Shown here piece by piece: positions 8,001 to 57,339 of a stretch of 64,000 bases of DNA. A program made the translations under genes and the position numbers. Location of the stretch: the NCBI GenBank assembly GCA_001783215.1, contig MFRA01000001.1:157449-221448 (forward strand). The letters are read 5' to 3'. Every line of letters begins with the position of its first letter. Within the stretch, counting starts at the first letter, position 1. The DNA is from Candidatus Magasanikbacteria bacterium RIFOXYD1_FULL_40_23 (GTDB lineage: Bacteria; Patescibacteriota; Patescibacteriia; Magasanikbacterales; GWA2-37-8). The notes beneath the pieces were generated by a model. The model made no database searches, was not told the DNA's origin, and saw nothing but the letters and a program-made list of their open reading frames with translations.

Positions 8001-8001
8001 A

Positions 8002-9498: not shown

Positions 9499-9509
9499 CG
9501 TTCCATTTT

Positions 9510-9818
9510 ATGAACCAGAAGTCACACTTTCATAATCTGGCCAAACGATGCATGCTCTTTATAAAACGCAACGGAACAATCATAAGTATTGAAGCTATGT
9601 CGGATTTTTGTTTTTCGTCCATAAGGCTGGAATACCAGCACGAAAATCTTGCAACAGAATTTGAACATACCTACTCGAAGAATAGCCAAGATTGCTGGAT
9701 ACGCATAAAGAAAGGCGTTGGGTTGGTTTTCGAAACTAGCGGGCTATTCACAAAATCATGGCACTTCATTACTTTGAGATACGTTGCCGGTGATTGGGAA
9801 AAGGAAATTATCATATGA
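9510..9818 (+). CDS. hypothetical protein
   Basis: 102-aa ORF with no recognisable motif. Confidence 0.35.
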   Translation: MNQKSHFHNLAKRCMLFIKRNGTIISIEAMSDFCFSSIRLEYQHENLATEFEHTYSKNSQDCWIRIKKGVGLVFETSGLFTKSWHFITLRYVAGDWEKEIII

Positions 9819-15387: not shown

Positions 15388-15891
15388 TTATTTTACAATT
15401 CTTACCCCAACAGACAATCCTTCTTGAATTTTTTTCAAATCCGCTTCGGAATAATTATTGCCGGAAATATTTAATGTTATGAGGTTTTTTAGATTGGCCA
15501 GTTCGTATGGTAAACCGGTAAGTTTATTGTAAGAAACATCTAGAACTTCTAAATATTGTAGTTGCCCTATTTCGGCAGGAAGACCAGTCATTTCGTTATT
15601 ACTCAAATTTAATACTTTTAAGTTTTTTAGTTTTCTAATTTCGGCTGGAATTGCGCCGGTTAATTTATTATTGGATAAATCAAGCTCTACCAAGTTTGTT
15701 TGATTAAAAAGATCTTCGGGTACTTTTGCTAGTTCTCGCCCACTAAGATTTAAGCTATTTTCTGTGGTAGATTTTACTTCTGGAGTAGCGTCTGTTCCAG
15801 CTGGTTCGCTATTGGATTGATTTGAAGCAGGTAAACAGCCGGCGCCTAGTAACAAGACAGAAACAACAAGCAGAAAAAGGTTGTATCTCAT
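15388..15891 (-). CDS. leucine-rich repeat (LRR) protein with signal peptide, possible lipoprotein
   Basis: Repeated LxxLxLxxNxLTGxIP units. N-terminal MRYNLFLLVVSVLLLGAGC. Confidence 0.65.
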   Translation of the reverse strand: MRYNLFLLVVSVLLLGAGCLPASNQSNSEPAGTDATPEVKSTTENSLNLSGRELAKVPEDLFNQTNLVELDLSNNKLTGAIPAEIRKLKNLKVLNLSNNEMTGLPAEIGQLQYLEVLDVSYNKLTGLPYELANLKNLITLNISGNNYSEADLKKIQEGLSVGVRIVK

Positions 15892-30421: not shown

Positions 30422-31855
30422 TTGAATTTTAGCATAAAATCATGCTATACTCAAACTATTATGACCAACCACCTAAATAAATTTTCTTTTAGCGCCTTGA
30501 TGGTGATTTTTTTGTCATTTTTTATAATAATCAACCCAAACATTGGCTTCGATATCCTGGCTTTTTTGCTAATTCTATTTATAATTTTACAAAAACTATT
30601 TGGCGAATATTTTATTCTAATCCTACTGGCCATGCGCCCCACACTTGATTATTGGCGCGATTTTAATCTTTTTTCCGTTGGCTTAATTGATTTCAACATC
30701 AATGCTAGCTTATCAGTATTTTTGCTTGGCTGGTCTATCATTTTCTTTATAAAAAACTACGAATATTTTAGACGTGTCCCTCTCAAAATTTCGTGGCTAC
30801 TTTTTATTCTCTGGTGCACCATCTCGCTTACTTATACCTATCACGCATCCTCCACTATTATAGAAACCATGAAGTTAGCCAACCTGTTTGCCTTGTTTGG
30901 TATTACCTATATATTGGCAGAAAAAGATCGGCTTGGATTTAAAGCTAAATTTTTAAAGGCTGGGGTTGCCGCCGCAATAGCGCCCTTACTTCTTGGACTC
31001 TACCAATTCATATCAAAAACTGGCATGGATATAGATGAAGTTTCCAATAGAATTTACGGAACTTTGGCTCATCCAAATGTGCTCGCTACTTTTGCTCTTT
31101 TGCTTCTTATGGTTCTGGCCAACGAAATTATCGCCAAACAAAAAAATAAAGGCTCTTTGCTTAACCTAAAAACCGACACATTACCAAAACTGCTAGGATT
31201 ATTTCTACTGATAATTATTGCGCTTACATACACTCGTATAGCTTGGATTGGCGCAGCTATTTTATTTATCATTATAGGTATAATTTATTACAAAAAAACA
31301 CTTATCTACTCAATAGCTGGACTGATTTTATTTTTTATTCTCTTCTACCCTATCAATAATTTTTTAATTAGTTCCTACAATATAAATCTGCAGGCTTCTG
31401 GTTTGATTTCTAGACTAACAACCCGCAACCAAGACTCCGACTCCGTACGCTGGCGCACCAACCTAGTTACAAAAGTTTTGCCTTTATTTAAGAAAGAATA
31501 TATTAAAGGATACGGTTACGGCACTTTTGCCCGCGTTTGGGATGACAACAAAGACCTGACTAATCTTTGGGACAATACTTCCGAAGCTCACAATGATTAT
31601 ATAAAAGTTGCTTTTGAGTCTGGAGTGGTTGGATTGTTTTTATTTCTTGTTATTTTTGCCACTCTCCTTTATAGACAAATTACTTTTGCTATAAAAAACA
31701 ACTGGAAAAACATCGTCTTTATTGCCAGTATTTTTGTTTATCTAATCTTAAGCTTCTCGGACAATATGCTTCATCACACACCTACAATTTGGTGGTTCTG
31801 GGCAGTTTGGGGTTGGTGGGCAAACGAGTATCGGATTGAAAAAAATAAAGAATAA
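30422..31855 (+). CDS. O-antigen ligase/polymerase family membrane protein (Wzy_C-like)
   Basis: More than 10 TM helices, plus the ...YTRIAWIGAAILFII... block typical of O-antigen ligases. Confidence 0.6.
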   Translation: MNFSIKSCYTQTIMTNHLNKFSFSALMVIFLSFFIIINPNIGFDILAFLLILFIILQKLFGEYFILILLAMRPTLDYWRDFNLFSVGLIDFNINASLSVFLLGWSIIFFIKNYEYFRRVPLKISWLLFILWCTISLTYTYHASSTIIETMKLANLFALFGITYILAEKDRLGFKAKFLKAGVAAAIAPLLLGLYQFISKTGMDIDEVSNRIYGTLAHPNVLATFALLLLMVLANEIIAKQKNKGSLLNLKTDTLPKLLGLFLLIIIALTYTRIAWIGAAILFIIIGIIYYKKTLIYSIAGLILFFILFYPINNFLISSYNINLQASGLISRLTTRNQDSDSVRWRTNLVTKVLPLFKKEYIKGYGYGTFARVWDDNKDLTNLWDNTSEAHNDYIKVAFESGVVGLFLFLVIFATLLYRQITFAIKNNWKNIVFIASIFVYLILSFSDNMLHHTPTIWWFWAVWGWWANEYRIEKNKE

Positions 31856-32043
31856 AGATTAAATCATCACTCATTTTATCCGCCTCTCTGCCCGCCGCAC
31901 ACCCATTCGGCTCTTTAGCAGAAAATTCGGCGGATTTTCAACTGACACAAAATTATTTCTCTCGGACTTATAATTTTGGTCGTTGAAAACAAAAAACCAC
32001 CCGGAGAGAGTTACCTAAATAAGTACTAAGGTATTTACTCATT

Positions 32044-32118
32044 CGCTCGAAAAAGTAAATAAATTTACTCTTTCTCACTCATTTCGCAAATAAAAAATTA
32101 TTTATTCGGGTAATCGGG
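32044..32118 (+). repeat. orphan copy of the ACTCATTYCG leader-element family
   Basis: actaaggtattTACTCATTCGCTCGaaaaagtaaataaatttactctttctCACTCATTTCGcaaataaaaaa. It matches the elements abutting the start codons at 44045 and 53731. Confidence 0.4.
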
Positions 32119-32235
32119 TGGATGTTTTGCGAGGCAGATAAATCTGCCCATTTTTTTTCACTAATTTTTTAGTGAAGACAAACGGACAGACAATGCCAGA
32201 AAGAATTCGTTAGAACTCTTAAATTTTTTTTACCA

Positions 32236-32345
32236 TTTTCTACTCGCCTTCGTCTTTTACTTCGGCGTAGCGAAGAGTGATACAAAAGATTTAAGAGAGG
32301 AAGAGTGCTGTTGGTATTTATCCAACAAAGCTTTTTCTTCCTACC
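32236..32345 (-). terminator. island 3' module A (duplicate of 37002..37110): two-hairpin terminator-like element
   Basis: About 75% identical to module B over about 110 nt. Contains the hairpins CTTCGgcgtagCGAAG and GAGGAAGagtgctgttggtatttatccaacaaagctttttCTTCCT. Confidence 0.5.
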
Positions 32346-32374
32346 TCAGCGTTTGCCAAGGATTTGGGGTGGTG

Positions 32375-33166
32375 TTAGGGCGGGGGCGGAATCACCTCAA
32401 TGTAGATGGATGCTTGATGGGTGGTGTTACCCATTCCATCGAAGCAGGTGAAGGTGTGCATGGCACTAGAGAGCGGCGCGAACTGCGGTCTGGAACCCGC
32501 CACTTCGTACGCCCCGCTTGAGAGCCCGCCTTGAACCGACGGTTGGCTCATGCCACCACAGCTAGTGGAGACGGTGTTGTCACCATCCCAGACGAGCGGC
32601 ACTTGCTGCCCTCTGGGGATTGAGTAATTACCGTCGGAGACAACTGTCGCATTGGTTACCGACATGCGCATCGCTCGGACTGCCACCGACTTCGGCTCTG
32701 ACACTGCTCCGGACTGGTCGAAACAAATCAGGGTATAGGTAGTCGTCCTGAAGAGCGGAACAACGTCCACCAAACCATTCGCAGCTTGAGAGCCGGAAAA
32801 GTCTGTGGCGCCGTTGTTCGCGGTAGCAGCGCAAACAACAACGGAGGCGTTGGTCGTCCAGGTCAACGAGACGGTTTCGCCTACGCGAACTTTGTCGTCA
32901 CTGACCGTGAACTCGACAATGTTCGGCGGTTCTGCCGCAGCGTCGATGATAGTCATACCACCATCGGTGCCAGCGTCATCATCCATAGGCATTGCATCCA
33001 TCTCAGCATCATCGTCAGCAGCTTCGCCACTCGGGTCGAATGCACAGGCAACGATAATGAGTGCTGACGCGACAATACCAGAAATAAACACTGCAGTGCG
33101 ATGCATGACATGCTCCCCCGACCAAAAAGGCCGTAAAATGGTTTTAACTACGTGGCAACTTGCCAC
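32375..33166 (-). CDS. lipoprotein with Ig-like domain (same domain family as 33415..35664); probable true start at 33106
   Basis: GGGGGAG RBS before the ATG at 33106 (MHRTAVFISGIVASALIIVAC, lipobox IVAC). The domain block is ...VSLTWTTNASVVVC...TYTLIC.... High GC. Confidence 0.6.
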   Translation of the reverse strand: MASCHVVKTILRPFWSGEHVMHRTAVFISGIVASALIIVACAFDPSGEAADDDAEMDAMPMDDDAGTDGGMTIIDAAAEPPNIVEFTVSDDKVRVGETVSLTWTTNASVVVCAATANNGATDFSGSQAANGLVDVVPLFRTTTYTLICFDQSGAVSEPKSVAVRAMRMSVTNATVVSDGNYSIPRGQQVPLVWDGDNTVSTSCGGMSQPSVQGGLSSGAYEVAGSRPQFAPLSSAMHTFTCFDGMGNTTHQASIYIEVIPPPP

Positions 33167-33287
33167 CCTAAATTTAACAAAGAATTTCTCTATTAAATTT
33201 TAGGTGGCAAATATATTTTTCAAAGAAATTTTTTTATAATTCGATCTGTATCATCTTCCTAAAAATTATTTAAGAAGATAATTAGAT

Positions 33288-33317
33288 CGTGTGAGCTTGT
33301 TGGTACAAGCTCACACG
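33288..33317 (-). terminator. hairpin H1 downstream of island gene 2 (covaries with H2)
   Basis: CGTGTGAGCTTGttggtaCAAGCTCACACG, preceded by the shared motif tcttcctaaaaattatttaagaagata. Confidence 0.45.
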
Positions 33318-33414
33318 TGGCTGACTGTCGCTTGTCCGATTTGCTTGCGCATTTCAGGCTTGCGAACTTCCGACTGTTGTCATGAGTGTCGGAGAACTCT
33401 CCTGATTCCTGCCG

Positions 33415-35664
33415 CTACAGGTTCGTGTTGGGCGGACCCGTCAACACCGTGACCGGCGTTGCGCACTGCAGATCCCAGGTGATCCCACTCGGCGGATTCG
33501 CATCCGTCGCGTGGCCTGGCAGCAGCGAACACCCAGTGGTGTATCGACGCGCACTGTCCTGAACTGCCCCTGGCGTCCAGATGCTCGATCCGCCCACAGG
33601 CATGACCGTGAGGAACGACGCGTAGTGGCAGGTGATGGCACAGACGCCATCGGGACCTGAGACCTTGTTGCCGACGAGGGTCAGAACCTGCGGAACTCCC
33701 GTTGCCGACCAGCCCTTGCAAACATCTATGCTTGGCAGATCGGAGTTCTTGTAGAACGCCTCCATTCCGTGACACATCGTGTTGGCGGGCGGAGCGGTCA
33801 CGCTGATGTTGACGAACTTGGTGATGGTGCCACCAGCGACACGGGTGCAGGTAAGCGTGTAGGTGTGCGTCGCGATCATCGTGGGGTTCACGATGATGTT
33901 GCCGTCCACCGGACGATCACCAGTCCAGGCGTTGCTTGCGGTACAAGCGTCGGCGTGGGTGCTATCCCACTCGAGCTTGTAACCACCACCCAATTGCACG
34001 GCCACAGGCGTGGCAGTGAGAGTCAGCGCCAGATCGGGCAGTTGCGGAGCCGTTACGGTCACGTCGGCCGTCGCGTTCACGCTACCACCAGGGCCGGTGC
34101 AGGAAAGCTGGTACTTGGCATCGCTGGTGGGGCTAACCACCAAGGTGCCATTTACCGGCTTCGATCCACTCCAGCTACCCGTGGCCGTACAACTCGTCGC
34201 GTTGGCCGTGCTCCAGCTCAGCGTGCTGCTCTGCCCCATGGTGATGGTGGCAGGCGTTGCGCTGAACGAGAGCGTTGGAAGCGGATGTTGAACCACGGTC
34301 ACAGTCGCCGTGCGAGTGATCTGCTGTCCACCTGGACCGTTGCAGGTCGCGGTGTAGGTCTTCGTTGCGTTCGGGCTGACCGTCATCGTTCCGCTGGTCG
34401 GCTTTGACACCGACTCGATCGTACAGCTAGTCGTGTTCGTACTCGCCCAGCTCAGGCAGCTGCTATCACCGGCGTCGATCGTCGATGGGGAAGCAGAGAA
34501 ATTGAGCGTGAGCAAGGGGTTGACGGTCACAAGCGCGCCGCGAGTGATCGACCCTCCAGGACCTTCGCAGGTCAAGGAGTAGGTCGTCGTCGAGGTCGGC
34601 ATGAGATTCGTCCACGAACCGCTCAAGGGTTGTGTCACCCAGTTGCCGCTGCTGTTGAGGCTACGGCAACTCGTCGCGTTCGCGCTCGTCCAGGTCACGG
34701 TCGTCGTCCCGCCCACATTGATAGTGGCTGGGCTGGCCGTGACGGTCAGAGTCGGAAGCGGCGGAGGCGGTGCGGCGTTGACGACCACAGTAACCGAATC
34801 GGTGACCACATCGTATGAACTGTTGTAGCAGGTCAAGGAGTAGGTCGTCGTCGTGGTCGGCATGAGTCCCGGCCACGATCCATCGATCGGCTGGGGTACC
34901 CAGTAGCCGCTAGCGTTCAGGCTCAAACAGTTCGTAGCGTTCTCGCTGTTCCAGCTCACTGTGGTGCTCTGCCCCACAGTGATGCTGGTCGACGTCGCGG
35001 TGACGTCGAGGGTCGGCAGTGGCGGTTGGATCACGGTCACGGTGACCGATCCATTGTAGCCATGGCCATCCAGACCAGTGCAAACCACCGTGTAGGCGGT
35101 CGTCTGGATCGGAGAGACCACGAAGGTGCCGTTGGGCATCTGCGACCACGTCTCGCTGTTGGTACAGCTCGACATGTTCGTGCTCGTCCAAACCACTGTG
35201 GCGCTCTGCCCCCTGCTGATTGTCATCGGAGTCGCCGTGACTTCGAGAGTCGGATCCGGCGGCGGAGGCGGCTGGATCACCGTCACATCGACGTGATCCA
35301 TGATGCCGACGCCGTTAAGACCGGTACACACCACCGTGTAGGTGGTGTCCACGGTCGGCGAGACCGTGTAGGTACCGTTGACCGGCTGGGACATGCCCAT
35401 GCTGGTGCAGTTGGCCGTGTTGGTAGACAGCCAGTTGATCGTTGCGCTCCCACCGAGGTTGATCTCCATCGGCGTGGCAGTCACGACCAAGGTCGGAGCA
35501 CCGGGCGGTGCATCCGGCGGCGGTGCGTCGGGCGGGGGCGTCGAAGCATCCTCTCCCATCGCATCCACCTCCGGCACGCTGCCGTCGGCTCCCAGGCCTT
35601 GTCCATCCACGACACATGCGGTGACCGAAGCCACCAGGAACAGCAAACTGATTGCCTTACGCAT
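33415..35664 (-). CDS. lipoprotein with about 7 tandem Ig-like domains (about 85 aa each, conserved Cys pair)
   Basis: GGAAGGAG RBS and lipobox VTAC. Repeats follow the pattern PTLxVTATPxxIxxGQSxTVxWxSxNATSC....TYTLTC. High GC. Confidence 0.65.
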   Translation of the reverse strand: MRKAISLLFLVASVTACVVDGQGLGADGSVPEVDAMGEDASTPPPDAPPPDAPPGAPTLVVTATPMEINLGGSATINWLSTNTANCTSMGMSQPVNGTYTVSPTVDTTYTVVCTGLNGVGIMDHVDVTVIQPPPPPDPTLEVTATPMTISRGQSATVVWTSTNMSSCTNSETWSQMPNGTFVVSPIQTTAYTVVCTGLDGHGYNGSVTVTVIQPPLPTLDVTATSTSITVGQSTTVSWNSENATNCLSLNASGYWVPQPIDGSWPGLMPTTTTTYSLTCYNSSYDVVTDSVTVVVNAAPPPPLPTLTVTASPATINVGGTTTVTWTSANATSCRSLNSSGNWVTQPLSGSWTNLMPTSTTTYSLTCEGPGGSITRGALVTVNPLLTLNFSASPSTIDAGDSSCLSWASTNTTSCTIESVSKPTSGTMTVSPNATKTYTATCNGPGGQQITRTATVTVVQHPLPTLSFSATPATITMGQSSTLSWSTANATSCTATGSWSGSKPVNGTLVVSPTSDAKYQLSCTGPGGSVNATADVTVTAPQLPDLALTLTATPVAVQLGGGYKLEWDSTHADACTASNAWTGDRPVDGNIIVNPTMIATHTYTLTCTRVAGGTITKFVNISVTAPPANTMCHGMEAFYKNSDLPSIDVCKGWSATGVPQVLTLVGNKVSGPDGVCAITCHYASFLTVMPVGGSSIWTPGAVQDSARRYTTGCSLLPGHATDANPPSGITWDLQCATPVTVLTGPPNTNL

Positions 35665-35687
35665 GAGAATCTCCTTCCGTAACGGTT

Positions 35688-35796
35688 GAGTGAGGCCGAA
35701 ATGGCCACTTGATGGCCACCATGGCCGAGAAACTACTCGGAGCTTACTACTTGTTGCCTCCGAATTAAATAAATATATTTTTTATATTTACTAAAT
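35688..35796 (-). promoter_or_regulatory. island 5' leader module L1 (near-identical to L2 at 36846..36963)
   Basis: About 110 nt and about 92% identical to L2. Contains two TGGCCAT direct repeats about one helical turn apart, a CTCGGAG/CTCCGA hairpin and an AT-rich promoter-like tract. Runs into the GGAAGGAG RBS and ATG of gene 2. Confidence 0.6.
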
Positions 35797-35903
35797 TCGA
35801 AGGCAACTTTTTGATTTTAATTTACTTTGGTTTTTTGAAAAGAACGCTTTTGTTTTTTAAGCTTCTCATCCTCCTAAATTTAATTAAGAAGATAAGATAC
35901 TAT

Positions 35904-35940
35904 CGCGACGTGTTCTCTGTATGAGAGAGAACACGTCGCG
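35904..35940 (-). terminator. hairpin H2 downstream of island gene 3 (covaries with H1)
   Basis: CGCGACGTGTTCTCTgtatgagAGAGAACACGTCGCG. It sits in the same position and after the same aagaagata motif as H1 but has a different stem sequence. Confidence 0.45.
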
Positions 35941-35987
35941 AACGCCTGCCTACACTTCCGATCGCTCGGTTGCGTAGATTGCGCTTG

Positions 35988-36812
35988 TCAGAACCAGCCG
36001 GTCCTGATGCCCAAACGGACACCCAGACCGAATCCGGTCCACCTGCCGACGTACATCGGCTCGGTGCTTACGGCTCCGACCACATCGGCGAACATGCCGA
36101 AGTGTTCCCAGTTGCCGGCCAACCGCAAGCCTGCATCCACGGCACGGAGCTGAACCAGCTCCTCTCCGGGATCGTCGACGTTGGAACAGAAGCTGAGGTT
36201 GACGGTGGGGCCGAGACCGAAGTGATCGCTGCGCTTGTTCAAGAGCGCCGCACCGGCCGTGGCCGCCACCTCGCTCTTGCCACAACCACCAACGCCAACG
36301 TTGGCGCTCCACTCCCAGGAACGGGTGTTGAGCGTCCCGACGAAGCCGGCGGTGAGCATCTCTTCGACGCTCTCGTCGTACCCGTCGCGATCATCGCGAG
36401 GTTGGAGCAGGACGAACCCACTGCCGAACAGGCCACCGCCAAAGCGGTACCTGCTCGTCTCCACCACCGTCACCGGGAACGGATCGAGCGTGACCGCCGG
36501 CGAAACCGCCGGTGCCTCCTCGTCCTTGCCGTTGTAGGTGTGGTTGATCACCTCGACGCACGCCGTGTCGATGTTCTTGACCGTGTGGATGACACCGGTG
36601 ACGGCGTCGACTTGGATCTCGGTGCGCGGCTTGCCCTCGGCACAGTCATCGTCGACCGGGACGACGCTGGTCTCCACCACCACATCGGCGGGAGGATCTT
36701 CGTTGCTCTGGGCTGCGACTTCCTGCGCCATCATGCCGATGAGGCAGATGCTGGCAAGGGTCAACAGACCATTCTTCTTCCACTGCATGTGCGAAACCTT
36801 CTTGACGAACAT
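35988..36812 (-). CDS. secreted protein with beta-barrel OMP-like C-terminus (ends ...GIRTGWF)
   Basis: GAAGGAG RBS before the ATG at 36812 (MFVKKVSHMQWKKNGLLTLASICLIGMMAQEVAAQ signal peptide). C-terminal alternating hydrophobics ending in Phe. High GC. The track began it at 36833. Confidence 0.55.
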   Translation of the reverse strand: MFVKKVSHMQWKKNGLLTLASICLIGMMAQEVAAQSNEDPPADVVVETSVVPVDDDCAEGKPRTEIQVDAVTGVIHTVKNIDTACVEVINHTYNGKDEEAPAVSPAVTLDPFPVTVVETSRYRFGGGLFGSGFVLLQPRDDRDGYDESVEEMLTAGFVGTLNTRSWEWSANVGVGGCGKSEVAATAGAALLNKRSDHFGLGPTVNLSFCSNVDDPGEELVQLRAVDAGLRLAGNWEHFGMFADVVGAVSTEPMYVGRWTGFGLGVRLGIRTGWF

Positions 36813-36845
36813 GGCGAGTTCTCCTTCTTCCAAAAACTGGTTGCG

Positions 36846-36963
36846 TGAGGCCGAAGTGGCCAGTAACGATGGCCACCATGGCCGAGAAACTTCTCGGAGC
36901 TTACTACTTGTTGCCTCCGAATTAAATAAATATATTTTTTATACTTACTAAATTCGAAGGCAA
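36846..36963 (-). promoter_or_regulatory. island 5' leader module L2 (duplicate of L1)
   Basis: See L1. Differs mainly by a 2-nt indel in the spacer between the TGGCCA hexamers. Confidence 0.6.
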
Positions 36964-37001
36964 TGTTTTTTGTTTTGTAAAGAACTTTTCCAATTTTTTC
37001 T

Positions 37002-37110
37002 TTTCACCACTCGCCTTTGCTTTTTGCTTCGGCGTAGCGAAGTGATGAGCAGAAAATTTGGGAGGAAGGGAGTGGTTGGTATTTCTCCAACAAGACTTCC
37101 CTTCCTCTTT
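37002..37110 (-). terminator. island 3' module B (duplicate of module A)
   Basis: ttttcaccactcgcctttgctttttgCTTCGgcgtagCGAAGtg...GAGGAAGGGAGtggttggtatttctccaacaagaCTTCCCTTCCTC, downstream of 37138..38025. Confidence 0.5.
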
Positions 37111-37137
37111 GACGACTGCCTCGAACTACTCGAGGCG

Positions 37138-38025
37138 CTACTTGCGCGTCACCTTGGCCGGCCGCGGGGTCTTCGGCGGCGGACCAGGGTGATTGACGGT
37201 CTTAATCCTGACCGTCACGGGCTTGACCGTTTCTTCTGCGGGCATCCCGGGCAGATCGCTTACCTTGATCCGATCCATCTTCTTGATCTGCTCAACATCG
37301 AGCTTGATGGAGTCGATGTCCTTCCGGACGTCGACCATCTGCTTGTTCAGCTTGCCGATGGCGGTCCACTGACCGCGCTGTCCCTTCTCGAATTTCTCGA
37401 GCTTCTCCACCCGCTCCTCGATCGTGGGCGGATCCACTTCCTCTTCCTGCGCAGCAGCACGCTCCGCACAGGGATCGTCGGCGGGAGCAGCTTCCTCCTC
37501 GGTCTCCTCCTCTTCGGTAGGCGTCACCACAGCCTGAGGCTGAGGCACTTCCTCCACCGCCGCGGGCGCGGGAGCCGGGGCGGCGACCGGCGGCGGAGCG
37601 TTCTCCGTCGGGGCAGCAGCACCGGAACCCTTGCCCACGTTGGTGACCTTGGTGCTGGCGGACTTGGACGAGTCCGAGCCACCGGACTTGAGCAGCATGA
37701 CGACGACGCCGAGAGCGACCAGGATCGCGATGGTGATCGCGAAGACGGTCCACGACTTCTTGTCGTCGGGCGGCGACGGGTCCGGCTGCTGGTACTGCAT
37801 GGTCTGCGGCGGCAGATTGATCTGCGCCGTGGGCGCCGCCGACTGCTGATACTGCGGCGGGAGCGTCGGGGGCGGGAGCGTCGGCTGGGGCGGGCTGCTG
37901 GGCAGCGGACGCTGCGGGGCCGGCGGCATGCCGGGGAGCGGGCGCTGCGGACTGATGGTCCCAGCAACAGGGGCTTGTGACCGAACAGTGGGCGAACCAT
38001 ACGGGGGCGTGGTCTTCTGCGGCAT
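37138..38025 (-). CDS. Pro-rich, single-pass membrane-anchored coiled-coil protein
   Basis: AAGGAG RBS. N-terminal PxxP-rich region, TM helix WTVFAITIAILVALGVVVMLL, Ala/Pro/Glu-rich linker, then C-terminal coiled-coil (EERVEKLEKFEK...). Two alternative high-GC frames were rejected. Confidence 0.6.
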   Translation of the reverse strand: MPQKTTPPYGSPTVRSQAPVAGTISPQRPLPGMPPAPQRPLPSSPPQPTLPPPTLPPQYQQSAAPTAQINLPPQTMQYQQPDPSPPDDKKSWTVFAITIAILVALGVVVMLLKSGGSDSSKSASTKVTNVGKGSGAAAPTENAPPPVAAPAPAPAAVEEVPQPQAVVTPTEEEETEEEAAPADDPCAERAAAQEEEVDPPTIEERVEKLEKFEKGQRGQWTAIGKLNKQMVDVRKDIDSIKLDVEQIKKMDRIKVSDLPGMPAEETVKPVTVRIKTVNHPGPPPKTPRPAKVTRK

Positions 38026-38191
38026 GGCGGTCTCCTTCTGTGTCTACCGAATCGTTGACTCGTGAGTTTCTTTCCCGCCTGATCAAATTGATCTTGCGAG
38101 AATCCACGAGTTGAAATACGTTGCTGCTAACTAATTCAAGGTACTACTTTTTTCTTTTGAACGACCACCTTTTTATCAGTGATAGTTCCAA

Positions 38192-38228
38192 TTAAAAACA
38201 GTAAAACCTCTTCTTTGCGAGAGAGGTT
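38192..38228 (-). terminator. putative intrinsic terminator downstream of the giant gene
   Basis: Minus strand: AACCTCTctcgcaaagaAGAGGTT then tttactgtttttaat. Confidence 0.35.
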
Positions 38229-38450
38229 GCAAGCTTAAATGCCCTTTATTGATCTGTTTAAATGGCTAAAACAACACCTCTCAATATTGCTCTAACCTCT
38301 AAATTTTCAACGATAGGCCACTATACCATAAAACCTAGTTTTTGTCAATAGGATGACAGGGGGAAATTATCTTTTTGGCTAACTACAAACAAAAAGTACC
38401 CCTTTTTAGAGATACTCTTTGTTTAAAATTTATAAAACTAAGTCATTTAG

Positions 38451-41400
38451 CTATTCAATAGGCGCGCCCGGCTCATTTTTTAGCATATCATTTGCCAGAT
38501 TTACTGCCTCTTCATAAGAATATTTTTGTACAATTTTTCCATCATCCATCTTTAATAAAACACCATCTTTAACGACAAAGGTATTATCCAAATCAGAAAT
38601 AAGAAATTCTTTACCTTCTCTGTCTGTAATTCTAGCAATATGACTATCGTTGGCCAGCATTTTAACACCGTCTTTATTAGGATCTAAAAATAATTTAAGC
38701 TCTTCACCTTCAAGATTTTTGTACCAATCCGGATTCTTATCTATATGATTAAACGCATCCAGTGTATCCTTCATTGTTCTGACGCTTTCAACTACTTTTT
38801 CATCTAAATTAGAAACATCGCCGGCAAAAACTTTTTTGGCATACTCTTTAAAGCTTGCCATTGACGGCTCATTTTCTATTTGTTTTTTAAGTATATCTTG
38901 GCCATCACCTACCATAATAAATTCCGTTTTTTGCAGCGCAATATTAGCTTTCATTGATTCAAAATTCTGATACATAACTTTAAAGCTTTCCACACTTTTC
39001 TCTGTCAATTCTGCAGGTTCTCCTGCAATCGCTTCGCTCTTTTCTGCCTGCTGCTTAGCGGACTCTTCTACTGTAGGTGATACTGGTTTTATTTCAGATG
39101 TTGACTTCGCAGTGTTTTCTAAACTAGTTTTAATTTCTACCTGCTTCGCTCCAGGAGCTGCTTGCACCACTTCCCCGCTAGCCTTAAAAGTTTTGATTGT
39201 TTTACCAACTAAAGTTTTTTCTGTCGTAGTTTCTTCACCTACTACCTCTGGTCCTTGAATATCATTTATAATATTGGCATTTGCCCAAAGCTTATCATCA
39301 ACAGACATTCCGTCATTGATACTTGTTCCGTTTAAGTTACCGGCTTTTTCTTTGGCTGCATTTATCACATATGTTCCTACGGGCTCTCCAGCACGTGCTC
39401 TATCAGAAATATTTATTGCTTCTTCTCCCATTTTGGCAAACTTAGCTTTGTCTGCTTCAATTTCTGCAAGTACAGCGCGATCACCCTCTGGCAACTCGAC
39501 AGCAGGAGCGTTTTTAAAATCACCTTCGTATGGAGCCTCTTCAATTGTTGTAGGAGAAGTTGTAATTTTAACCATTACCGTTTCTTTCAAAACCACTCTG
39601 CCCTGACCGCTCAAAATAGGTTCACCTTTTTCATCTAAACCAAAATATTTAAGCTCACCACCCTGCAAACTTACAGTTCTGCCAGTTCTATCTTCGGTAG
39701 CAGCCCTAAAGAAACCGGCATTGGCCAAATCTGTATTACCCTTGCCTTGCATGGCTCTAAATAAACCATAGACCATCTTTTTATCTGGTTTTTCGTCGTA
39801 TTGCTCTACAAATTTTAAGTAATCTTCGTGCGTGCCTTTGCCAATATATTCGGCCAAATAAGATTTATGCCTACTACTAAAATCTTGACTCTCCAAATAT
39901 TTAGCCGCACCTTCATAATCTTTTGCTTTTACAAGTTCTTCAAAAATTACAGATCTGCGTTCGCCTTCAGCCTCTATAAGAGTGTCTACATCGCCACGAA
40001 CAAGATCGGCATGATGGAATTTAACCCCATCACCCACTTTACTTGCTTCCAAAATCCTACTCAAGGATTCTTCTTTTAAGCTTGGATACTGTTCAACTAA
40101 TTTTTGTAACGGAACCAAGGACTCTTCACTTAATTTATGTTCGGCAGCAAAATCTTGCACAGAAAATAGTGCTGTTTCTGGTGCTATTGCTTCCGGAACT
40201 GGTTCTACACTAACCGTATTCACTGGCGCCACAATATCTTCTTTTGGTAATTCGGCAACTGAACTTGGCAATGCTATTTCTGGTGCAATACTTTCATGTC
40301 CAGTTACCTTGTCCCAAGCGCTCTCAGCTAGATGTCCAATATTTCCTGGGGTCTCCCAAACACGCTTTGCGTTTTGTACAAAACTATCAGATATAATAGA
40401 TGCATCTTTTTCTTTTATCGCTTGGATTAAATTATCTATACTTTCTTTTGGAGAACCTCCATGCAAAACTGTGATATTAAATATACCCACGCCGCGAGCA
40501 ATGGTGCCCAATGCTTTTACAAAATCCATAGCTCTAGCGACACCAGAAGAACCTTCCTTGGCGCCACGGAAAGTAAGCGCACGAGCAGTTTCTTTAGCAG
40601 TACTTGATATTATATCTTTCGTAAATGTTTTTGCATCTTTTTTGTCTTTTAAAGAGCCGGCGATATCTTTTATTTCTTCTTTTTTAACTTGCTTTATTTT
40701 TTCAAAAGCAGAAGCAGCAAGATACACTGCACCTCGCAACAAAGAAATGCCGGTAACTGTAAGTCCTAAATTTAAAGCGTCTTTGGCAATTTTAACTCCC
40801 GAAACTTTTCCATGTATATATGATTCTAAAAGCTCTCTCACTTCACTATCCCTATCATTTCTAGACTTAGTTGTTTCTGTTTTATGTTTTATGGAAATAG
40901 CCCATAATCTTTCTAAAATTTGTTTTTTGGCTTCTTCTTTAATATTTGCAGATCCAATTTTTTCTTTCAAATACTCTATACGTTTTTCAATTCGTTCATT
41001 TTCTGACAAAGCCTCCCCTTTTTTATTTTTTTCGGAAGCCACTAATAAATCTTGGTGGGCTGCAAAAATACTTTCTACGGCTGTTTTGGATTCTTTTGAT
41101 CCCTTTCTCCATTCTGCAAAATCTCCTCTTCCAGTTAAACCACCATATACAATATCTGTAATAATTTTTACACCAAAAAGAGTGGTTACAGTATCATAGC
41201 TTGCTTTTCCAATCGCAAGCCCAAATTCTTTACTAATGACAGCTTTTTTTAAACCGCTCGCTTTTTCTTTTACCCAACCCCACACACCTTTTTTCTCAGG
41301 AGCAGGCGCTGCCGGTACTTGAGGAGATATCTTTTGTATGAATTCCGCATGCAATTTTGGATAGTGTTTTTGCAAATCCTCTGCAAAAGCTTGCATATTA

Positions 41401-44045
41401 TAAAGAACCGTTTCATCCAATTTATTGTGCTGAGACATTTCTTTCTTAGCTTTATCAATATTCGTACGGATAACTTCCATTCTCCATTTAAAACTTTCCA
41501 TAACTTCCGGATTACCACTATTTTGTATAATTTTTTCTAAGGTACCAAAATCACGCTCATACATTTGTAAAAGCATTTTCTGTTCTGGAGATGGAAGGTT
41601 TTCTTCCCCAGATATTCGAGCTGTCGTAGGCGTCTCTAATGTATTTTTATCTGTTTCTGGAAAAGGTAAATCTACAGATGTCGGTTGAGATTTTTTATTG
41701 ATTTCAGCCAACCTACCATAAAATTTATTTTTTACTTCTTTTAACTCTTCTGGTAAGGTCAACTTACCAAAGGCTCTCATCAGTTTATCCAATTTTTCTT
41801 CGTATACATCTTCATTGTCCAAATTATTTTTTGCCTCTGCTATAGCATCCTTTACAGCTTGCAAGTCAGCAGTAAACTTAACACGTAAATTTTTATCCTG
41901 CTCATCCATTACCATCTCAAACAAAGACAAATCATCTTCTGTCTTCTTTATTCTATTTTCATATTCCTCTCTTTCCTGCTTTGTTCCAGAAGTTTCTTTT
42001 CCATTTAATCTAAGCTGATGCTCTTTTTTTACATTATTAGGAAGGGAATTCCACAACTCATTAATTAATACTTTTGCTTCCTTTAAATGAAGCTCGTGCG
42101 CCACACTGTCTTTTTCTACCAAACTTGCCTTCGCCTTATTTAAAAGCTGTATTGCAGCATCTACTAATAAAGATGTACGAGTTTCATAAAAATTATAACT
42201 TTTGTCTTTGCTATGAAAACGCTGTCGCATTATACGTTCAACCATCTTTATTCTCCTTATCTCTTCAAGGATAAGATCTACCCCTGAATCTTTGTCTTCT
42301 ACCTTGTCTTTAATTTCTTTTATAGAAGTCGTATCTTTTTTAACCATCTCTTCTCTTCTCAAAGAAGGTGTCTTGTCGGCAAGCTGGCTTTCGTACTCTA
42401 ATTTTACTTCTGATGGGACTTTGGTCAAAAGTTCAGTAAAGGCACTTTCGGCTCTATCTATTTCTCTGCTATGTACTCGAGGATTTCTGGCATGGTAAGT
42501 AAGGTCCAAGCTTTCCTCAATTTCTTCAACTAAAGACCTAATATTATCTGCTTGATCATCGGTCAAAATTTCTTCGGCAATATTTTTAAACAAAGCAAAC
42601 TTATCGTTCATTTCTTGATATCTTTTTTGTCTATATTCTGGAGCATCTTTATCAACAACCGCATCACCCACTACGACACTTGATTCTTTTTCGTCTTTTT
42701 CAACAACTGGTACCACTTTTTTCTTTTCACCTTTACCCAAAGAAGCTTTCTGGAGATTAAATTCTTTTCTTACCGCTTCTGAAACATTCAAAAAAACTTT
42801 GGTAAAATTGTGTTCAAATACTCTAAGCTGCTCTCTATATTCATCCCAATCATCGGTAGCTTCTATTTTTTCCAAAGCACTTTCAATTTTCTCTTCGTTT
42901 TCTTTGGTTTCTGCTCTTTCTTCTTTGGTCATTTTTTCCATAGCAAGAGACCTAAGCAACTCCCATCGCTCATCCGCATATTGCAATGTTTTATCCCTAT
43001 CTTCTTGCCAGTCTTTTTCCACAACTGGTTCTGCTTCTTTTTCTTTAGTCTTAACCTCTTCCTTTTCCCAGAATGGAGGGTTACCATTTAACTGACTAAA
43101 ATATTCCAACCTTGCTTTTGTTGGAATAGTGCGAATGATTAAATCAAAATTACGTTCAAACGCCGACATGGCGTTTTCGTATTCTTCTGCGTCATTAGAT
43201 TCAAGCGCTGTTTTTAAACCACCATTAATCGCATCCGTGGTTTCTTCGCTAACCGAACCTTCTCTCAACATTTTACCTATTATTTCCTGGAGAATATCCC
43301 ATCTTTTAACAGCATCCTGGTGTCTTTCTACTCTCTGCTCTTGCCCATTCTCAACAGCACCAGCTTTTCTTTTAGAGGCCTTCTTGGTTTTGTGCTCTGG
43401 CTTTTCTTTTTCGTCTTCTTCAGGCTCCGGCTGTAATTGTTCTGGAACCGCAATTTCTTTAGAATCAGTCTCAGCCTTATTTTCTCCTTTTTTTATATCC
43501 AAGAGAGCCAAGGTCTCTGTTTCTATTTCTAATTTTTTAGCCTCATAGCCTGCTGGGTCTTTAATCTCTAACAGTTCGGTAATTTCTCCCTTTATTTTTT
43601 TATATTTTCCAAAATTTTTAAACAAAACATTATCGCTCGCACTAGACTGTCCAACCAAATGCAACCTAGCTTCTTCGAGGTCTGCAAACAATTTAGCCTG
43701 CTCTATTTCTCTATCTTTTTTACCTTTATACTCTTTGAAGCTAAACGGCTTAGCTTCTGCCGATTTTCTTTTGGAATTTTTTGCTCCTTGAAACTCCAGC
43801 CCCAGGCTAGCAATTTCTAAATGAATTTTATTTTTAAATTCTTTTTTATTATCTGCACCATCATAAGAATCTAATTTTTCAGAAATCTTTCTTAAAGCCA
43901 AAATAAGATGGTCTTTTTTATCTTGAGGTATATCGGCCGAATTAATTTCGGCCTCTAACGAAGCCAGCCTAGTAGCTGTATCTTTTTGAAATGTGCTTTC
44001 ATTTTTATCTGGGGACGATCCCCTCTCCGGACCTCTTTTTGCCAT
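38451..44045 (-). CDS. giant K/E-rich surface/membrane protein (1864 aa), hypothetical
   Basis: The first about 900 aa are highly charged coiled-coil. A central region has hydrophobic helices (GLAIGKASYDTVTTLFGVKIITDIVYGGLTG, LNLGLTVTGISLLRGAVYLAASAF). The C-terminal region is globular. Start set at ATG 44045 (MAKRGPERG), which directly abuts the conserved leader. The track TTG at 44066 is less likely. Confidence 0.7.
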   Translation of the reverse strand: MAKRGPERGSSPDKNESTFQKDTATRLASLEAEINSADIPQDKKDHLILALRKISEKLDSYDGADNKKEFKNKIHLEIASLGLEFQGAKNSKRKSAEAKPFSFKEYKGKKDREIEQAKLFADLEEARLHLVGQSSASDNVLFKNFGKYKKIKGEITELLEIKDPAGYEAKKLEIETETLALLDIKKGENKAETDSKEIAVPEQLQPEPEEDEKEKPEHKTKKASKRKAGAVENGQEQRVERHQDAVKRWDILQEIIGKMLREGSVSEETTDAINGGLKTALESNDAEEYENAMSAFERNFDLIIRTIPTKARLEYFSQLNGNPPFWEKEEVKTKEKEAEPVVEKDWQEDRDKTLQYADERWELLRSLAMEKMTKEERAETKENEEKIESALEKIEATDDWDEYREQLRVFEHNFTKVFLNVSEAVRKEFNLQKASLGKGEKKKVVPVVEKDEKESSVVVGDAVVDKDAPEYRQKRYQEMNDKFALFKNIAEEILTDDQADNIRSLVEEIEESLDLTYHARNPRVHSREIDRAESAFTELLTKVPSEVKLEYESQLADKTPSLRREEMVKKDTTSIKEIKDKVEDKDSGVDLILEEIRRIKMVERIMRQRFHSKDKSYNFYETRTSLLVDAAIQLLNKAKASLVEKDSVAHELHLKEAKVLINELWNSLPNNVKKEHQLRLNGKETSGTKQEREEYENRIKKTEDDLSLFEMVMDEQDKNLRVKFTADLQAVKDAIAEAKNNLDNEDVYEEKLDKLMRAFGKLTLPEELKEVKNKFYGRLAEINKKSQPTSVDLPFPETDKNTLETPTTARISGEENLPSPEQKMLLQMYERDFGTLEKIIQNSGNPEVMESFKWRMEVIRTNIDKAKKEMSQHNKLDETVLYNMQAFAEDLQKHYPKLHAEFIQKISPQVPAAPAPEKKGVWGWVKEKASGLKKAVISKEFGLAIGKASYDTVTTLFGVKIITDIVYGGLTGRGDFAEWRKGSKESKTAVESIFAAHQDLLVASEKNKKGEALSENERIEKRIEYLKEKIGSANIKEEAKKQILERLWAISIKHKTETTKSRNDRDSEVRELLESYIHGKVSGVKIAKDALNLGLTVTGISLLRGAVYLAASAFEKIKQVKKEEIKDIAGSLKDKKDAKTFTKDIISSTAKETARALTFRGAKEGSSGVARAMDFVKALGTIARGVGIFNITVLHGGSPKESIDNLIQAIKEKDASIISDSFVQNAKRVWETPGNIGHLAESAWDKVTGHESIAPEIALPSSVAELPKEDIVAPVNTVSVEPVPEAIAPETALFSVQDFAAEHKLSEESLVPLQKLVEQYPSLKEESLSRILEASKVGDGVKFHHADLVRGDVDTLIEAEGERRSVIFEELVKAKDYEGAAKYLESQDFSSRHKSYLAEYIGKGTHEDYLKFVEQYDEKPDKKMVYGLFRAMQGKGNTDLANAGFFRAATEDRTGRTVSLQGGELKYFGLDEKGEPILSGQGRVVLKETVMVKITTSPTTIEEAPYEGDFKNAPAVELPEGDRAVLAEIEADKAKFAKMGEEAINISDRARAGEPVGTYVINAAKEKAGNLNGTSINDGMSVDDKLWANANIINDIQGPEVVGEETTTEKTLVGKTIKTFKASGEVVQAAPGAKQVEIKTSLENTAKSTSEIKPVSPTVEESAKQQAEKSEAIAGEPAELTEKSVESFKVMYQNFESMKANIALQKTEFIMVGDGQDILKKQIENEPSMASFKEYAKKVFAGDVSNLDEKVVESVRTMKDTLDAFNHIDKNPDWYKNLEGEELKLFLDPNKDGVKMLANDSHIARITDREGKEFLISDLDNTFVVKDGVLLKMDDGKIVQKYSYEEAVNLANDMLKNEPGAPIE

Positions 44046-44066
44046 ATACGATATGAGTGAGTGCAA

Positions 44067-49366: not shown

Positions 49367-49825
49367 TTGTGCTATTGTTTGCCTATGTCCCTTGCCGAAA
49401 ATAAAAAAGCTTTTTTTGACTATGAAATCCTAGAGAAAATCGAGGCTGGTTTAAAGTTGACAGGGCAAGAAGTAAAATCCGCTAAAGCTGGCCAAATAAA
49501 CCTAAAAGGCACTTTCGTCACCTTTCATAACGGCGAAGCCTACGTAACAAACATGCATATAAACAAATACAAAGCCGCAGGCCCTATGCCAGACTATGAC
49601 CCTACTCATTCTCGCCAATTACTCCTACGCAAGAAACAAATCGCTTATTTACAGGCAAAATCCCATGAAAAGGGCTTGACAATTATGCCTTTATCCGTGT
49701 ATACTAAGGGACGATTGATAAAGATTGAAATCGCTGTAGCTAGAGGAAAAAAGTTATACGACAAAAGAGAATCAATCAAAAATCGAGAACTCAAAAGAGA
49801 GCTTGATCGAGCGAGAAAAAACTAA
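49367..49825 (+). CDS. smpB: SsrA-binding protein SmpB
   Basis: ...KKAFFDYEILEKIEAGLKLTGQEVKS...GKKLYDKRESIKNRELKRELDRA is typical of SmpB. The likely start is an internal Met (MSLAENKK). Confidence 0.85.
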   Translation: MCYCLPMSLAENKKAFFDYEILEKIEAGLKLTGQEVKSAKAGQINLKGTFVTFHNGEAYVTNMHINKYKAAGPMPDYDPTHSRQLLLRKKQIAYLQAKSHEKGLTIMPLSVYTKGRLIKIEIAVARGKKLYDKRESIKNRELKRELDRARKN

Positions 49826-49826
49826 A

Positions 49827-50220
49827 GGGGGTGCCGGGCTTCGATAGAGGCTGCTGGCTACGCTGGCATACCGAGGAAGCTCTGATCCTCGTAAATCACA
49901 AAGAGCAACATAATAAGTGCAAACTTGTTATCAAAAGCTAAAGTTGCTGTAGCAAATTTATTTGCTGTCAGAGCTTTCGCTCCGGTAATGGCTTAATAGC
50001 CTGTTACCCATCGCGCCGATAATACTCAGTAATCGAACCGCGGTGTCATTAACTGAGAGTAGCTAATATGGAGCGCCGACTGTATATTAGTGAAGTTACC
50101 CGGCTCGTCAATCCAATTTTCGTCCTCTTTTATCGGGTTGATTAAATAACAAGAGACACTAAGTATGTAGAAGGTTTAGTCAAAGTTATCTACACGCGAG
50201 TTCAACTCTCGCCACCTCCA
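49827..50220 (+). ncRNA. ssrA: tmRNA (ssrA), 394 nt
   Basis: Begins GGGGGUGCCGGGCUUCGA 1 nt after the smpB stop. GCAUACCGAGG...CCUCGUAAA and the tag ORF with GCAAAC resume codon and UAAUAG double stop parallel E. coli tmRNA. T-arm GCGAGuucaacuCUCGC. Acceptor GGGGGUG/CACCUCC with discriminator A. Confidence 0.75.
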
Positions 50221-50303
50221 CTGTGTCGCGCCGAAGCTTTAGCGGAGGCGGACAACAAAATTAAACAGTCGCCTTCGCCTTTTAGGGCTTCGGCGTACCA
50301 AGT

Positions 50304-57079: not shown

Positions 57080-57153
57080 GCGGGTCGGACGGGACTCGAA
57101 CCCGCAACTTCTGCCGTGACAGGGCAGTGCTCTAACCAGTTGAACTACCGACC
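57080..57153 (-). tRNA. tRNA-Asp (GTC)
   Basis: Minus strand: GGGTCGGtaGTTCAACTGGTtAGAGCACTGCCCTGTCACGGCAGaagtTGCGGGTTCGAGTCCCGTCCGACCCg. 7-bp acceptor stem, anticodon loop CUGUCAC, T-loop GGTTCGAGTCC. CCA is not encoded. Confidence 0.8.
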
Positions 57154-57339
57154 CAAATTGTTTGATTTATCCTGTTAAATGCTGCTTTGCAGACCCCGCC
57201 TTGCGGGGATTTAACAGGATGAACAAGAAAATTATACAAAAAAACCAAGAATATGTCAACTTTACTGTTCTGGCTTGAATATTATGAAGGGATAGGCTAG
57301 GATAGATTTTACATACTCTCATCCAAGGAAAAACATCCA

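Follow-up and report, generated by a model that had tools for sequence, protein, structure and literature searches.

A probable stalk-and-head surface lipoprotein encoded in a conserved GC-rich gene module of Magasanikbacteria-type bacteria

Introduction

What does a 749-residue lipoprotein made largely of tandem immunoglobulin-like (Ig-like) domains do for the bacterium that encodes it, and why does its gene lie in a block of DNA much richer in guanine and cytosine (GC) than the chromosome around it? Both questions are raised by a stretch of 64,000 nucleotides (nt; hereafter the window) from Candidatus Magasanikbacteria bacterium RIFOXYD1_FULL_40_23 (contig MFRA01000001.1, positions 157,449 to 221,448), a metagenome-assembled genome (MAG) from the Rifle aquifer. 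The bacterium is uncultured and ultra-small and belongs to the Candidate Phyla Radiation (CPR, Patescibacteria). The lipoprotein gene, here termed G2, is accompanied by three further GC-rich genes, G1, G3 and G4. We regard it as probable that G2 is a cell-surface stalk-and-head lipoprotein of Magasanikbacteria-type CPR bacteria, encoded in a conserved GC-rich module whose composition reflects a force specific to this locus.

The G2 lipoprotein

The G2 protein is identical to NCBI entry OGH93373.1, and its copies in ENA assemblies differ from it by one or two residues. The same genes are present in at least two NCBI MAGs and in a number of assemblies from ENA, JGI and Logan, whose contigs reach 394 kb. 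An assembly chimera is ruled out by this recurrence, and the window contains no N. From the N-terminus onward, G2 consists of an anchor, a linker, seven Ig-like units and a C-terminal head domain. These features are listed below with their window coordinates, their residue numbers in amino acids (aa) and, for the units, the scores of the profile search described in the next section.

33415..35664, minus strand: G2 coding sequence, 749-aa lipoprotein, intact open reading frame (ORF), GC at the three codon positions 0.50/0.60/0.77
35614..35664, minus strand: signal peptide and lipobox (MRKAISLLFLVASVTAC; Cys17), read from the sequence
35500..35613, minus strand: linker, acidic and proline-rich, aa 18-55 (...PPPDAPPPDAPPGA), read from the sequence
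35266..35499, minus strand: Ig-like unit 1, aa 56-133, 60.7 bits, sister of unit 2
35023..35256, minus strand: Ig-like unit 2, aa 137-214, 60.3 bits
34771..35022, minus strand: Ig-like unit 3, aa 215-298, 54.6 bits, sister of unit 4
34516..34758, minus strand: Ig-like unit 4, aa 303-383, 71.9 bits
34288..34515, minus strand: Ig-like unit 5, aa 384-459, 76.2 bits
34039..34287, minus strand: Ig-like unit 6, aa 460-542, 101.2 bits, the unit chosen for modelling
33790..34035, minus strand: Ig-like unit 7, aa 544-625, 70.0 bits, adjoining the head
33418..33789, minus strand: head domain, aa 626-749, with six Cys, the motifs CHG, CAITC, LPxH and WD..C, and the tail TLTGPPNTNL

The N-terminus of G2, MRKAISLLFLVASV, has a basic n-region and a hydrophobic h-region, a layout shared by the relatives. 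The lipobox pattern [LVI][ASTVI][GAS]C is fitted by VTAC in G2 and by IVAC in G1, the two lipoboxes named in an earlier note on this DNA, and the lipobox Cys is nearly invariant among the relatives (family alignment A2). Neither Lgt nor LspA is encoded within the 64-kb window. Linkers rich in 'PDA' and similar to that of G2 occur in relatives. Searches of the 749-aa protein against Pfam (E <= 1), NCBIfam and the PDB sequences gave no relevant match, and literature searches found no prior description.

Ig-like repeat units

The earlier note had read G2 as a lipoprotein of about seven diverged tandem Ig-like domains, each with a Cys pair. In order to avoid circularity, the hidden Markov model (HMM) of the repeat was built solely from domains of other organisms' proteins, and 400 shuffles of the G1 and G2 proteins served as the control. 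With this external HMM exactly seven full-length domains were found in G2 (54.6-101.2 bits, E 5e-19 to 1e-33), compared with a best score of 8.7 bits in the shuffled sequences (n = 400). The seven units are 32-59% identical in protein and 45-65% identical in codon-threaded DNA, and the Cys pair is conserved in each of them. The HMM and the alignment thus bear out the description of the array for aa 56-625, but aa 626-749 are a domain of another kind, containing six Cys. The external model recovers the seven units whereas the Pfam and NCBIfam models give no match to G2; among the named Pfam Ig-like families (Big_1-5, PKD, fn3, I-set, DUF5979, K319L-like_PKD) none is found in G2 at E <= 1. Tandem Repeats Finder (TRF) did not detect a tandem array in the DNA, and the units are therefore old.

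An AlphaFold2 model of unit 6, computed from a 99-sequence single-domain alignment, has eight strands and a mean predicted local distance difference test score (pLDDT) of 95.4. A comparison of the model with the PDB by Foldseek retrieved Ig-like and PKD-type domains with template-modelling scores relative to the query (TMq) of 0.60-0.71, among them those of the Deinococcus HPI surface-layer (S-layer) protein (8cka), an archaeal S-layer PKD domain (1l0q, TMq 0.71), Dscam, titin and SoxY. The repeat unit is predicted on this basis to fold as an Ig-like beta-sandwich, and the possibility raised in the earlier note that no Ig-like or PKD fold would be found is set aside by the model. The signature of the unit is a Trp in strand B together with the Cys pair NATSC...TYTLTC, and each such pair could form a disulfide. 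None of the seven aligned units contains the WDFGDG-type motif of PKD domains; the likeness to PKD is structural only, namely to 1l0q.

The repeat domain is very common. More than 1,200 homologous proteins were retrieved, and the 120 best matches contain 4-13 copies each. In these proteins, which are Proteobacteria-labelled or from Acidobacteria and Patescibacteria, the repeats occur in fusion with glycoside hydrolases, fn3, He_PIG, propellers and further modules. Pfam matches on these homologues are partial and mostly below the family cut-off (DUF5979, DUF4249, K319L-like_PKD, I-set, Ig_ADGRF3, Cupredoxin_1); for a few homologues the whole-protein score exceeds the cut-off through the sum of weak partial matches over many repeats. 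No dedicated family model for the unit exists in the Pfam and NCBIfam searches. In another CPR genome (locus L021, 5398-5865) a gene of the VKOR family, a family of disulfide-forming enzymes, lies directly upstream of a gene with this Cys-pair Ig-like repeat; this neighbour suggests that exported Cys pairs can be oxidised by these bacteria.

The C-terminal head domain

Residues 626-749 have no counterpart in any of the 120 best full-length hits of G2. An exhaustive HMMER search of 1.84 billion (1.84e9) representatives found the head domain in only 24 proteins, in 23 of which it stands at the extreme C-terminus; the exception, P0162, carries two copies. In this collection, in 185,579 species genomes and in the JGI metagenomes, the domain was not found outside the CPR module context. 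Of the 18 relatives that were read, most have a lipobox or a signal peptide at the N-terminus, and an acidic 'PDA' linker is present in many. The region preceding the head contains zero to two Cys-pair Ig units and sometimes Calx-beta or Cys-rich repeats. Since relatives keep the head but carry only 0-2 Ig units, the head is the defining part of this small family, which occurs in this lineage only.

In the head alignment the six Cys are invariant or nearly so, and the motifs CHG, CAITC, LPxH and WD..C are seen, whereas the tail TL(T/S)GPP is common to a subset of the family that includes the window protein. The structural model of the head (pLDDT 90.7) has no significant match among the solved structures of the PDB or the viral structures of BFVD, and a profile search against the PDB sequences gave no useful match. 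The head is an undescribed domain and the conserved, family-defining part of the protein; the Ig array is the variable part.

Variation in the number of units

Relatives contain 0-2 Ig units (22 relatives counted), compared with seven in the window protein, the highest number in the family. The repeat phylogeny that the earlier note had proposed as a check was obtained as a neighbour-joining tree of the units, without support values, in which units 1/2 and units 3/4 are sister pairs and unit 7 clusters with those units of the closest relatives that adjoin the head. The sister pairs and the placement of unit 7 suggest that the array grew by stepwise local duplication; the domain is short, which calls for caution in reading its tree.

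An independent assembly of 394 kb (L002, positions 7764-9752) contains a G2 allele of 662 aa that is exactly one unit length shorter. The segment that it lacks is:

34591..34851, minus strand: 261-nt segment, aa 272-358, across units 3 and 4, absent from the 662-aa allele of L002

The junction of the short allele falls within a 26-nt stretch shared exactly by units 3 and 4, which are 58% identical in aa and 65% in nt, and three other assemblies break in or beside G2. The 662-aa allele may be a real length variant or a collapse of the assembly at the k-mer level. The earlier note had argued that the array is not the result of recent slippage; this holds in that the units are old at the DNA level, but one assembly allele has exactly one unit fewer.

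The module and its chromosomal site

The partners of G2 are encoded on the same strand:

32375..33106, minus strand: G1, accessory lipoprotein of 243 aa with two distant Ig-like units (nt 32675-32920 and 32399-32629)
35988..36812, minus strand: G3, 274 aa, signal peptide, rich in Gly and in beta-strand-like segments, ending ...GWF, codon-position GC 0.63/0.44/0.81
37138..38025, minus strand: G4, bitopic membrane protein of 295 aa with a Pro-rich N-terminus, one transmembrane helix and a coiled-coil C-terminus, codon-position GC 0.68/0.51/0.82

G1 (NCBI OGH93372.1) starts at the ATG at 33106, behind a Shine-Dalgarno sequence. The external HMM finds two copies of the repeat in it (48.5 and 17.1 bits), which agrees with the earlier observation that a second gene holds the same domain. 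Its only Pfam match is Big_4, with 14.1 bits against a cut-off of 22.1. A weak homologue of G1, tandemly duplicated, is present in the loci L009 and L010. The start of G3 (NCBI A2563_02070) is likewise preceded by a Shine-Dalgarno sequence. Members of the G3 family (alignment A5) usually end in an aromatic residue and usually possess a conserved Cys pair of their own. G3 has no Pfam match and no relative in the PDB, and a large-database search returned only G3 itself; its profile retrieved from the PDB only strands of the FhuA barrel, weakly (E = 0.4). The likeness of G3 to outer-membrane-barrel proteins is one of sequence texture only (Gly-rich alternating segments, C-terminal Phe). Equivalents of G4 occupy the same position in L006, L008, L010 and L014.

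The gene caller of the public contig collection placed long ORFs antisense to G3 and G4, a typical artefact of GC-rich DNA; G4 is consequently missing from the protein collection, and G3 is found there only through the NCBI call on the minus strand. These plus-strand ORFs (35970-36848 and 36970-37980; 289-292 and 336 aa) were rejected on the basis of their mirror-image coding signature and the NCBI minus-strand call of G3.

The locus was compared with those of relatives on long contigs (L006, L008), with loci from a scan of species-representative genomes (L009-L012) and of JGI metagenomes (L016-L019), and with one further family member (L014). Wherever the upstream region is visible the three genes of the module have the same order: the bitopic G4, then the beta-rich G3 with its signal peptide, and the lipoprotein G2 last. 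L006 and L008 occupy the same chromosomal position as G2, in the series MraY, Mur ligase, PALP enzyme, GHL15/FG-GAP protein, Wzy and module. The module adjoins a Wzy polymerase/ligase-like gene in all ten of the related Magasanikbacteria-like CPR loci with visible flanks. The envelope genes in the neighbourhood within the window are those of MurB, MraY, Mur ligase, Wzy, Wzz and GT4, and otherwise the window is an ordinary piece of CPR chromosome. The word 'island' in the earlier note implies foreign DNA, but the module stands, GC-rich, at the same site in all related genomes examined.

L009, L010 and L011 are titled 'uncultured Gammaproteobacteria bacterium' in the database. Proteins encoded in their flanks share 50-92% identity with Magasanikbacteria proteins of the window, the synteny is the same, and the label was treated as wrong in view of this identity. 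Directly upstream of the module lies a gene of ordinary low GC for a giant 1,871-aa protein without a Pfam match (window 38451-44066, minus strand); its counterparts in L010 and L012, 36-41% identical, stand at this same position.

The GC anomaly

G1-G4 have 56-67% GC and a GC content at third codon positions (GC3) of 0.60-0.82, compared with a GC3 of ~0.3 in the other genes of the window and ~38% GC in its genome. Every related locus contains a block of 2.4-6 kb with 55-67% GC between flanks of 34-47%. Across the loci the module has a GC3 of 0.6-0.9 and the flanks of 0.3-0.47, in genomes of 38-44% GC. The GC-rich blocks are located as follows:

Window: 32300-38100
L006: 8300-11300
L008: 2400-5300
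L010: 6400-12400
L011/L012: 8000-10400
L014: 1150-4260

The non-transcribed promoter spacers between the module genes descend to 19-37% GC, and leaders and 3' untranslated regions are intermediate. Amino acid composition was rejected as the sole cause: with the codon usage of the host the same proteins would be encoded with 46-49% GC and a GC3 of ~0.35. Codon preferences are instead inverted in the module relative to the host, such that Leu TTA falls from 0.30 to 0.00 and Val GTC rises from 0.05 to 0.40. High GC is not a property of the domain type either, as genes with the same repeat in two other CPR genomes have a GC3 of 0.40 and 0.31.

L009 and L010 are a closely related pair (87% nt identity). 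Between them the synonymous divergence (dS) is 0.18-0.60 in the module and 0.43-0.88 in the flanks, which indicates that the two have largely co-diverged. The ratio of nonsynonymous to synonymous divergence (dN/dS) is 0.09-0.54 in the module, with 0.29 for the G2 orthologues, and 0.05-0.15 in the flanks, and GC3 is equal in both genomes. According to the dN/dS values these are real genes under purifying selection, three of which evolve faster than the flanks. Between four deeper lineages the proportion of synonymous differences (pS) in the flanks is 0.61-0.83, that is, synonymous sites are saturated; the lipoprotein is 34-61% identical between lineages where the flanks are 58-90% identical, and L006 and L008 are the closest pair for both flanks and module.

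One explanation of the composition is horizontal acquisition from a high-GC diderm donor (e.g. Myxococcota or Proteobacteria), either as a single ancient import or by repeated replacement beside Wzy. The GC3 of the module and its radically different codon usage would be accounted for in this way, and the best full-length matches of the Ig array include Pseudomonadota-labelled proteins. The dS of G2 in L009/L010 is below that of its neighbours, suggesting some lateral exchange. Moreover, the lipobox with its 'PDA' linker, the beta-rich protein with an aromatic end, and the MopE-like and Cys-rich repeats of distant members recall the protein texture of high-GC diderms. However, the module stands beside Wzy in every one of the ten loci with visible flanks although these flanks are synonymously saturated, its proteins are more and not less diverged than the flank proteins while yielding the same closest pair, and the module dS of L009/L010 roughly equals the flank dS. 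No integrase, transposase or reverse transcriptase was found in the window, the nearest tRNA gene is 19 kb away, and direct repeats at the borders of the module were not found. The head occurs only in the CPR context, and no donor genome of uniformly high GC carrying it was found in the collections searched for the head. L013, a contig of 6.3 kb, consists of GC-rich genes only, with AT-richer spacers between them; without visible flanks it is uninformative as to a donor. With neither a donor nor a mobility gene nor a reverse transcriptase, a simple recent transfer does not fit. A single ancient import would be expected to have ameliorated by now, and repeated import would need a donor pool that was not seen. 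Horizontal acquisition is an unlikely origin of the module.

A diversity-generating retroelement or another mobile element was also rejected, as no reverse transcriptase is encoded among the window ORFs of at least 150 aa and no integrase or transposase is present. Within the coding sequences of the module a repeat scan (31500-39000) found no near-identical repeat pair. Homogenisation is evident in the G1-like tandem paralogues of the relatives, which comprise 644 nt:

L009: 3554-4197 and 4428-5071, G1-like paralogue copies
L010: 10782-11425 and 11652-12295, G1-like paralogue copies

Inside each of these two genomes the copies share 98% identity, whereas between the genomes the identity is only ~86%; this is plainly concerted evolution by gene conversion. 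Spacers of the module are duplicated at 91-99% identity, and the divergence along the L009/L010 alignment is mosaic. The module is thus recombinationally active, which makes GC-biased gene conversion a candidate for the cause of its composition. Lassalle et al. reportedly described in 2015 a modest genome-wide shift of GC3 in recombining bacterial genes, attributed to GC-biased gene conversion; a localised jump of GC3 from ~0.35 to 0.6-0.9 has to our knowledge not been described in bacteria. Selection on codons or mRNA may be the alternative. It is consistent with an enrichment that is concentrated at third codon positions, although a reason for such selection is not evident; an example could be expression tuned to, or occurring in, a GC-rich host partner. 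Our leading guess is a force specific to this locus, either a GC bias linked to recombination or selection on codons or mRNA.

Proposed function

The most likely function that we infer from the sequence is that of a variable-length stalk presenting a binding head at the cell surface. G2 would be attached by a lipid anchor at Cys17, followed by an acidic, proline-rich tether of ~40 aa. The Ig array would be a passive spacer, ~25 nm long, by which the head is carried across the wall layers or past them. The head would bind a ligand outside the cell, and this ligand would plausibly belong to the bacterial host of what is probably an episymbiont. The partner proteins G3 and G4 would anchor or assemble the lipoprotein. 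A role of G2 as an adhesin or binding scaffold, called likely in the earlier note, is a reasonable hypothesis.

Alternatively, G2 might be a structural component of the wall or S-layer, or a scaffold for envelope enzymes, and not an adhesin, with its Ig-like units tiling or spanning the envelope and its C-terminal domain docked on wall polymers made by Wzy, Wzz and the glycosyltransferase. The best structural matches of the unit are indeed S-layer Ig-like or PKD domains (8cka, 1l0q), and the module is surrounded by genes for envelope polysaccharide and peptidoglycan. Yet a number of Ig units that ranges from 0 to 7 among orthologues would be unusual for a protein that forms a lattice, and the fast evolution of the lipoprotein (dN/dS 0.29; 34-61% identity versus 58-90% in the flanks) better suits a surface engaged in interaction or evasion, just as the lipid anchor and the tether suit a projecting molecule. 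We consider a structural role in the wall quite improbable. That the C-terminal domain or the Ig-like units are a cupredoxin-like redox or metal-binding module, as might be concluded from the UniRef name of G1 ('Blue (type 1) copper domain-containing protein'), the partial Cupredoxin_1 matches on one repeat homologue and the invariant Cys and His of the head (CHG, CAITC, LPxH), is hardly credible given that no cupredoxin Pfam family is found in G1 or G2 at E <= 1, that the match on the homologue is partial and concerns the shared beta-sandwich, that the head has an even number of Cys, six, all of them invariant, which is the pattern to be expected of three disulfides, and that no cupredoxin is among the structural matches of the Ig unit while the head has no significant structural match at all.

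Returning to the stalk-and-head lipoprotein, we tentatively propose that the module is vertically inherited and is actively kept at ~60-67% GC (GC3 up to 0.9) at an equilibrium specific to this locus, and that the head may mediate attachment to a host. Several points weigh against this proposal. The homogenised promoter spacers remain at 19-37% GC, contrary to what GC-biased gene conversion would lead one to expect. An unsampled pool of high-GC donors is a possible source of the GC of the module. The head offers no hint of its function, and its conserved Cys and His residues could equally point to metal binding or catalysis.

Control regions and other genes of the window

Every gene has a control region of its own, and hairpins follow the stop codons. 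The elements recognised are:

35684..35817, minus strand: 'P' module (promoter-like element and structured leader) upstream of G2, from the sequence and its predicted fold
36839..36976, minus strand: the other 'P' module copy, ahead of G3
36981..37093, minus strand: 'T' module with a hairpin, downstream of G4, 75% identical to 32212-32328
32212..32328, minus strand: the other 'T' module copy, following G1
33289..33316, minus strand: candidate terminator behind the G2 stop codon, a perfect hairpin read from the sequence
35903..35941, minus strand: candidate terminator behind the G3 stop codon, inverted repeat I11, whose 16-nt arms match perfectly
38320..38348, minus strand: strong sigma-70-like promoter ahead of G4, near-consensus TTGACA-17-TATAGT with an upstream TG

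The two copies of the 'P' module, of ~130 nt, are 91-96% identical and contain hairpins (GGCCATGGTGGCC...) and a strong Shine-Dalgarno sequence. Its presence ahead of two unrelated genes may indicate a shared cis-regulatory RNA. It was not found in the modules of the other genomes, and a search of the window with Rfam recognised only the tmRNA and one tRNA and no control element.

The tmRNA gene (49827-50223), with the predicted tag ANLLSKAKVAVANLFAVRAFAPVMA, directly follows the SmpB gene (together 49367-50223), and the tRNA-Asp gene is located at 57080-57154. Elsewhere in the window a small leucine-rich-repeat protein (15388-15891, minus strand) and a Fic/DOC-family protein (1936-2445, minus strand) are encoded, both of them types often tied to host interaction. 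A 213-aa protein (1145-1786, plus strand) has a signal peptide, is beta-rich and lacks a Pfam match; its gene has 50% GC and a GC3 of 0.54, and the same mild rise in GC is seen in the adjacent gene of a multi-pass membrane protein (282-959).

Comparison with known systems

Tandem Ig and PKD surface proteins form a rod-like stalk that carries a distal functional domain. Like those represented by 1l0q and 8cka, and like invasin, intimin and the Lig-type Big adhesins, G2 would be an exported, cell-anchored array of beta-sandwiches of ~80 aa. Unlike these proteins, it has no match to Pfam Big, PKD, fn3 or I-set at E <= 1 and possesses a unit signature of its own, its anchor is a lipobox and neither a beta-barrel nor LPXTG, and its distal domain is an undescribed six-Cys fold. 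In the periscope stalk proteins of Gram-positive bacteria (SasG, Rib) near-identical DNA repeats recombine readily. The G2 family resembles them in that the number of units varies (0-7), possibly between strains as well (the 749- and 662-aa alleles), which would change the projection of the head. It differs in that the units of G2 are only 45-65% identical in DNA, and the sole candidate for a length variant rests on the 26-nt match, by which an assembler might also be misled.

With regard to composition, the lgr genes ('large G+C-rich genes') for repeat proteins of Protochlamydia amoebophila have 41-43% GC in a genome of 35% GC, use codons like the rest of the genome and have been attributed to a foreign origin (PMC2216083). 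In both cases genes for repeat proteins are richer in GC than the genome of a host-associated bacterium. The gap of the module, ~25 points, its radically different codon usage and its conservation at one syntenic site despite saturated synonymous divergence have no counterpart in lgr. With cases of GC-biased gene conversion the module shares the high GC3, the concerted evolution of paralogues and spacers, and the mosaic divergence, whereas its AT-rich homogenised promoter spacers set it apart from plain GC-biased gene conversion.

Implications

The module is a counter-case to the practice of reading a block of deviant GC as recent foreign DNA, since it is syntenic, diverges together with its flanks, is under purifying selection and shows no compositional drift. 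It calls for caution in detecting gene transfer by composition in small genomes. An explanation of its GC could reveal a mutational or repair bias restricted to one locus, or else selection of a new kind acting on bacterial synonymous sites.

CPR bacteria represent a large share of bacterial diversity, and most of them are thought to live attached to other microbes, yet the molecules that make the contact are largely unknown. The G2 locus offers a concrete, lineage-conserved candidate for this contact in Magasanikbacteria-type organisms, which would consist of a lipid-anchored stalk of adjustable length, a fast-evolving head of unknown fold and two partner proteins.

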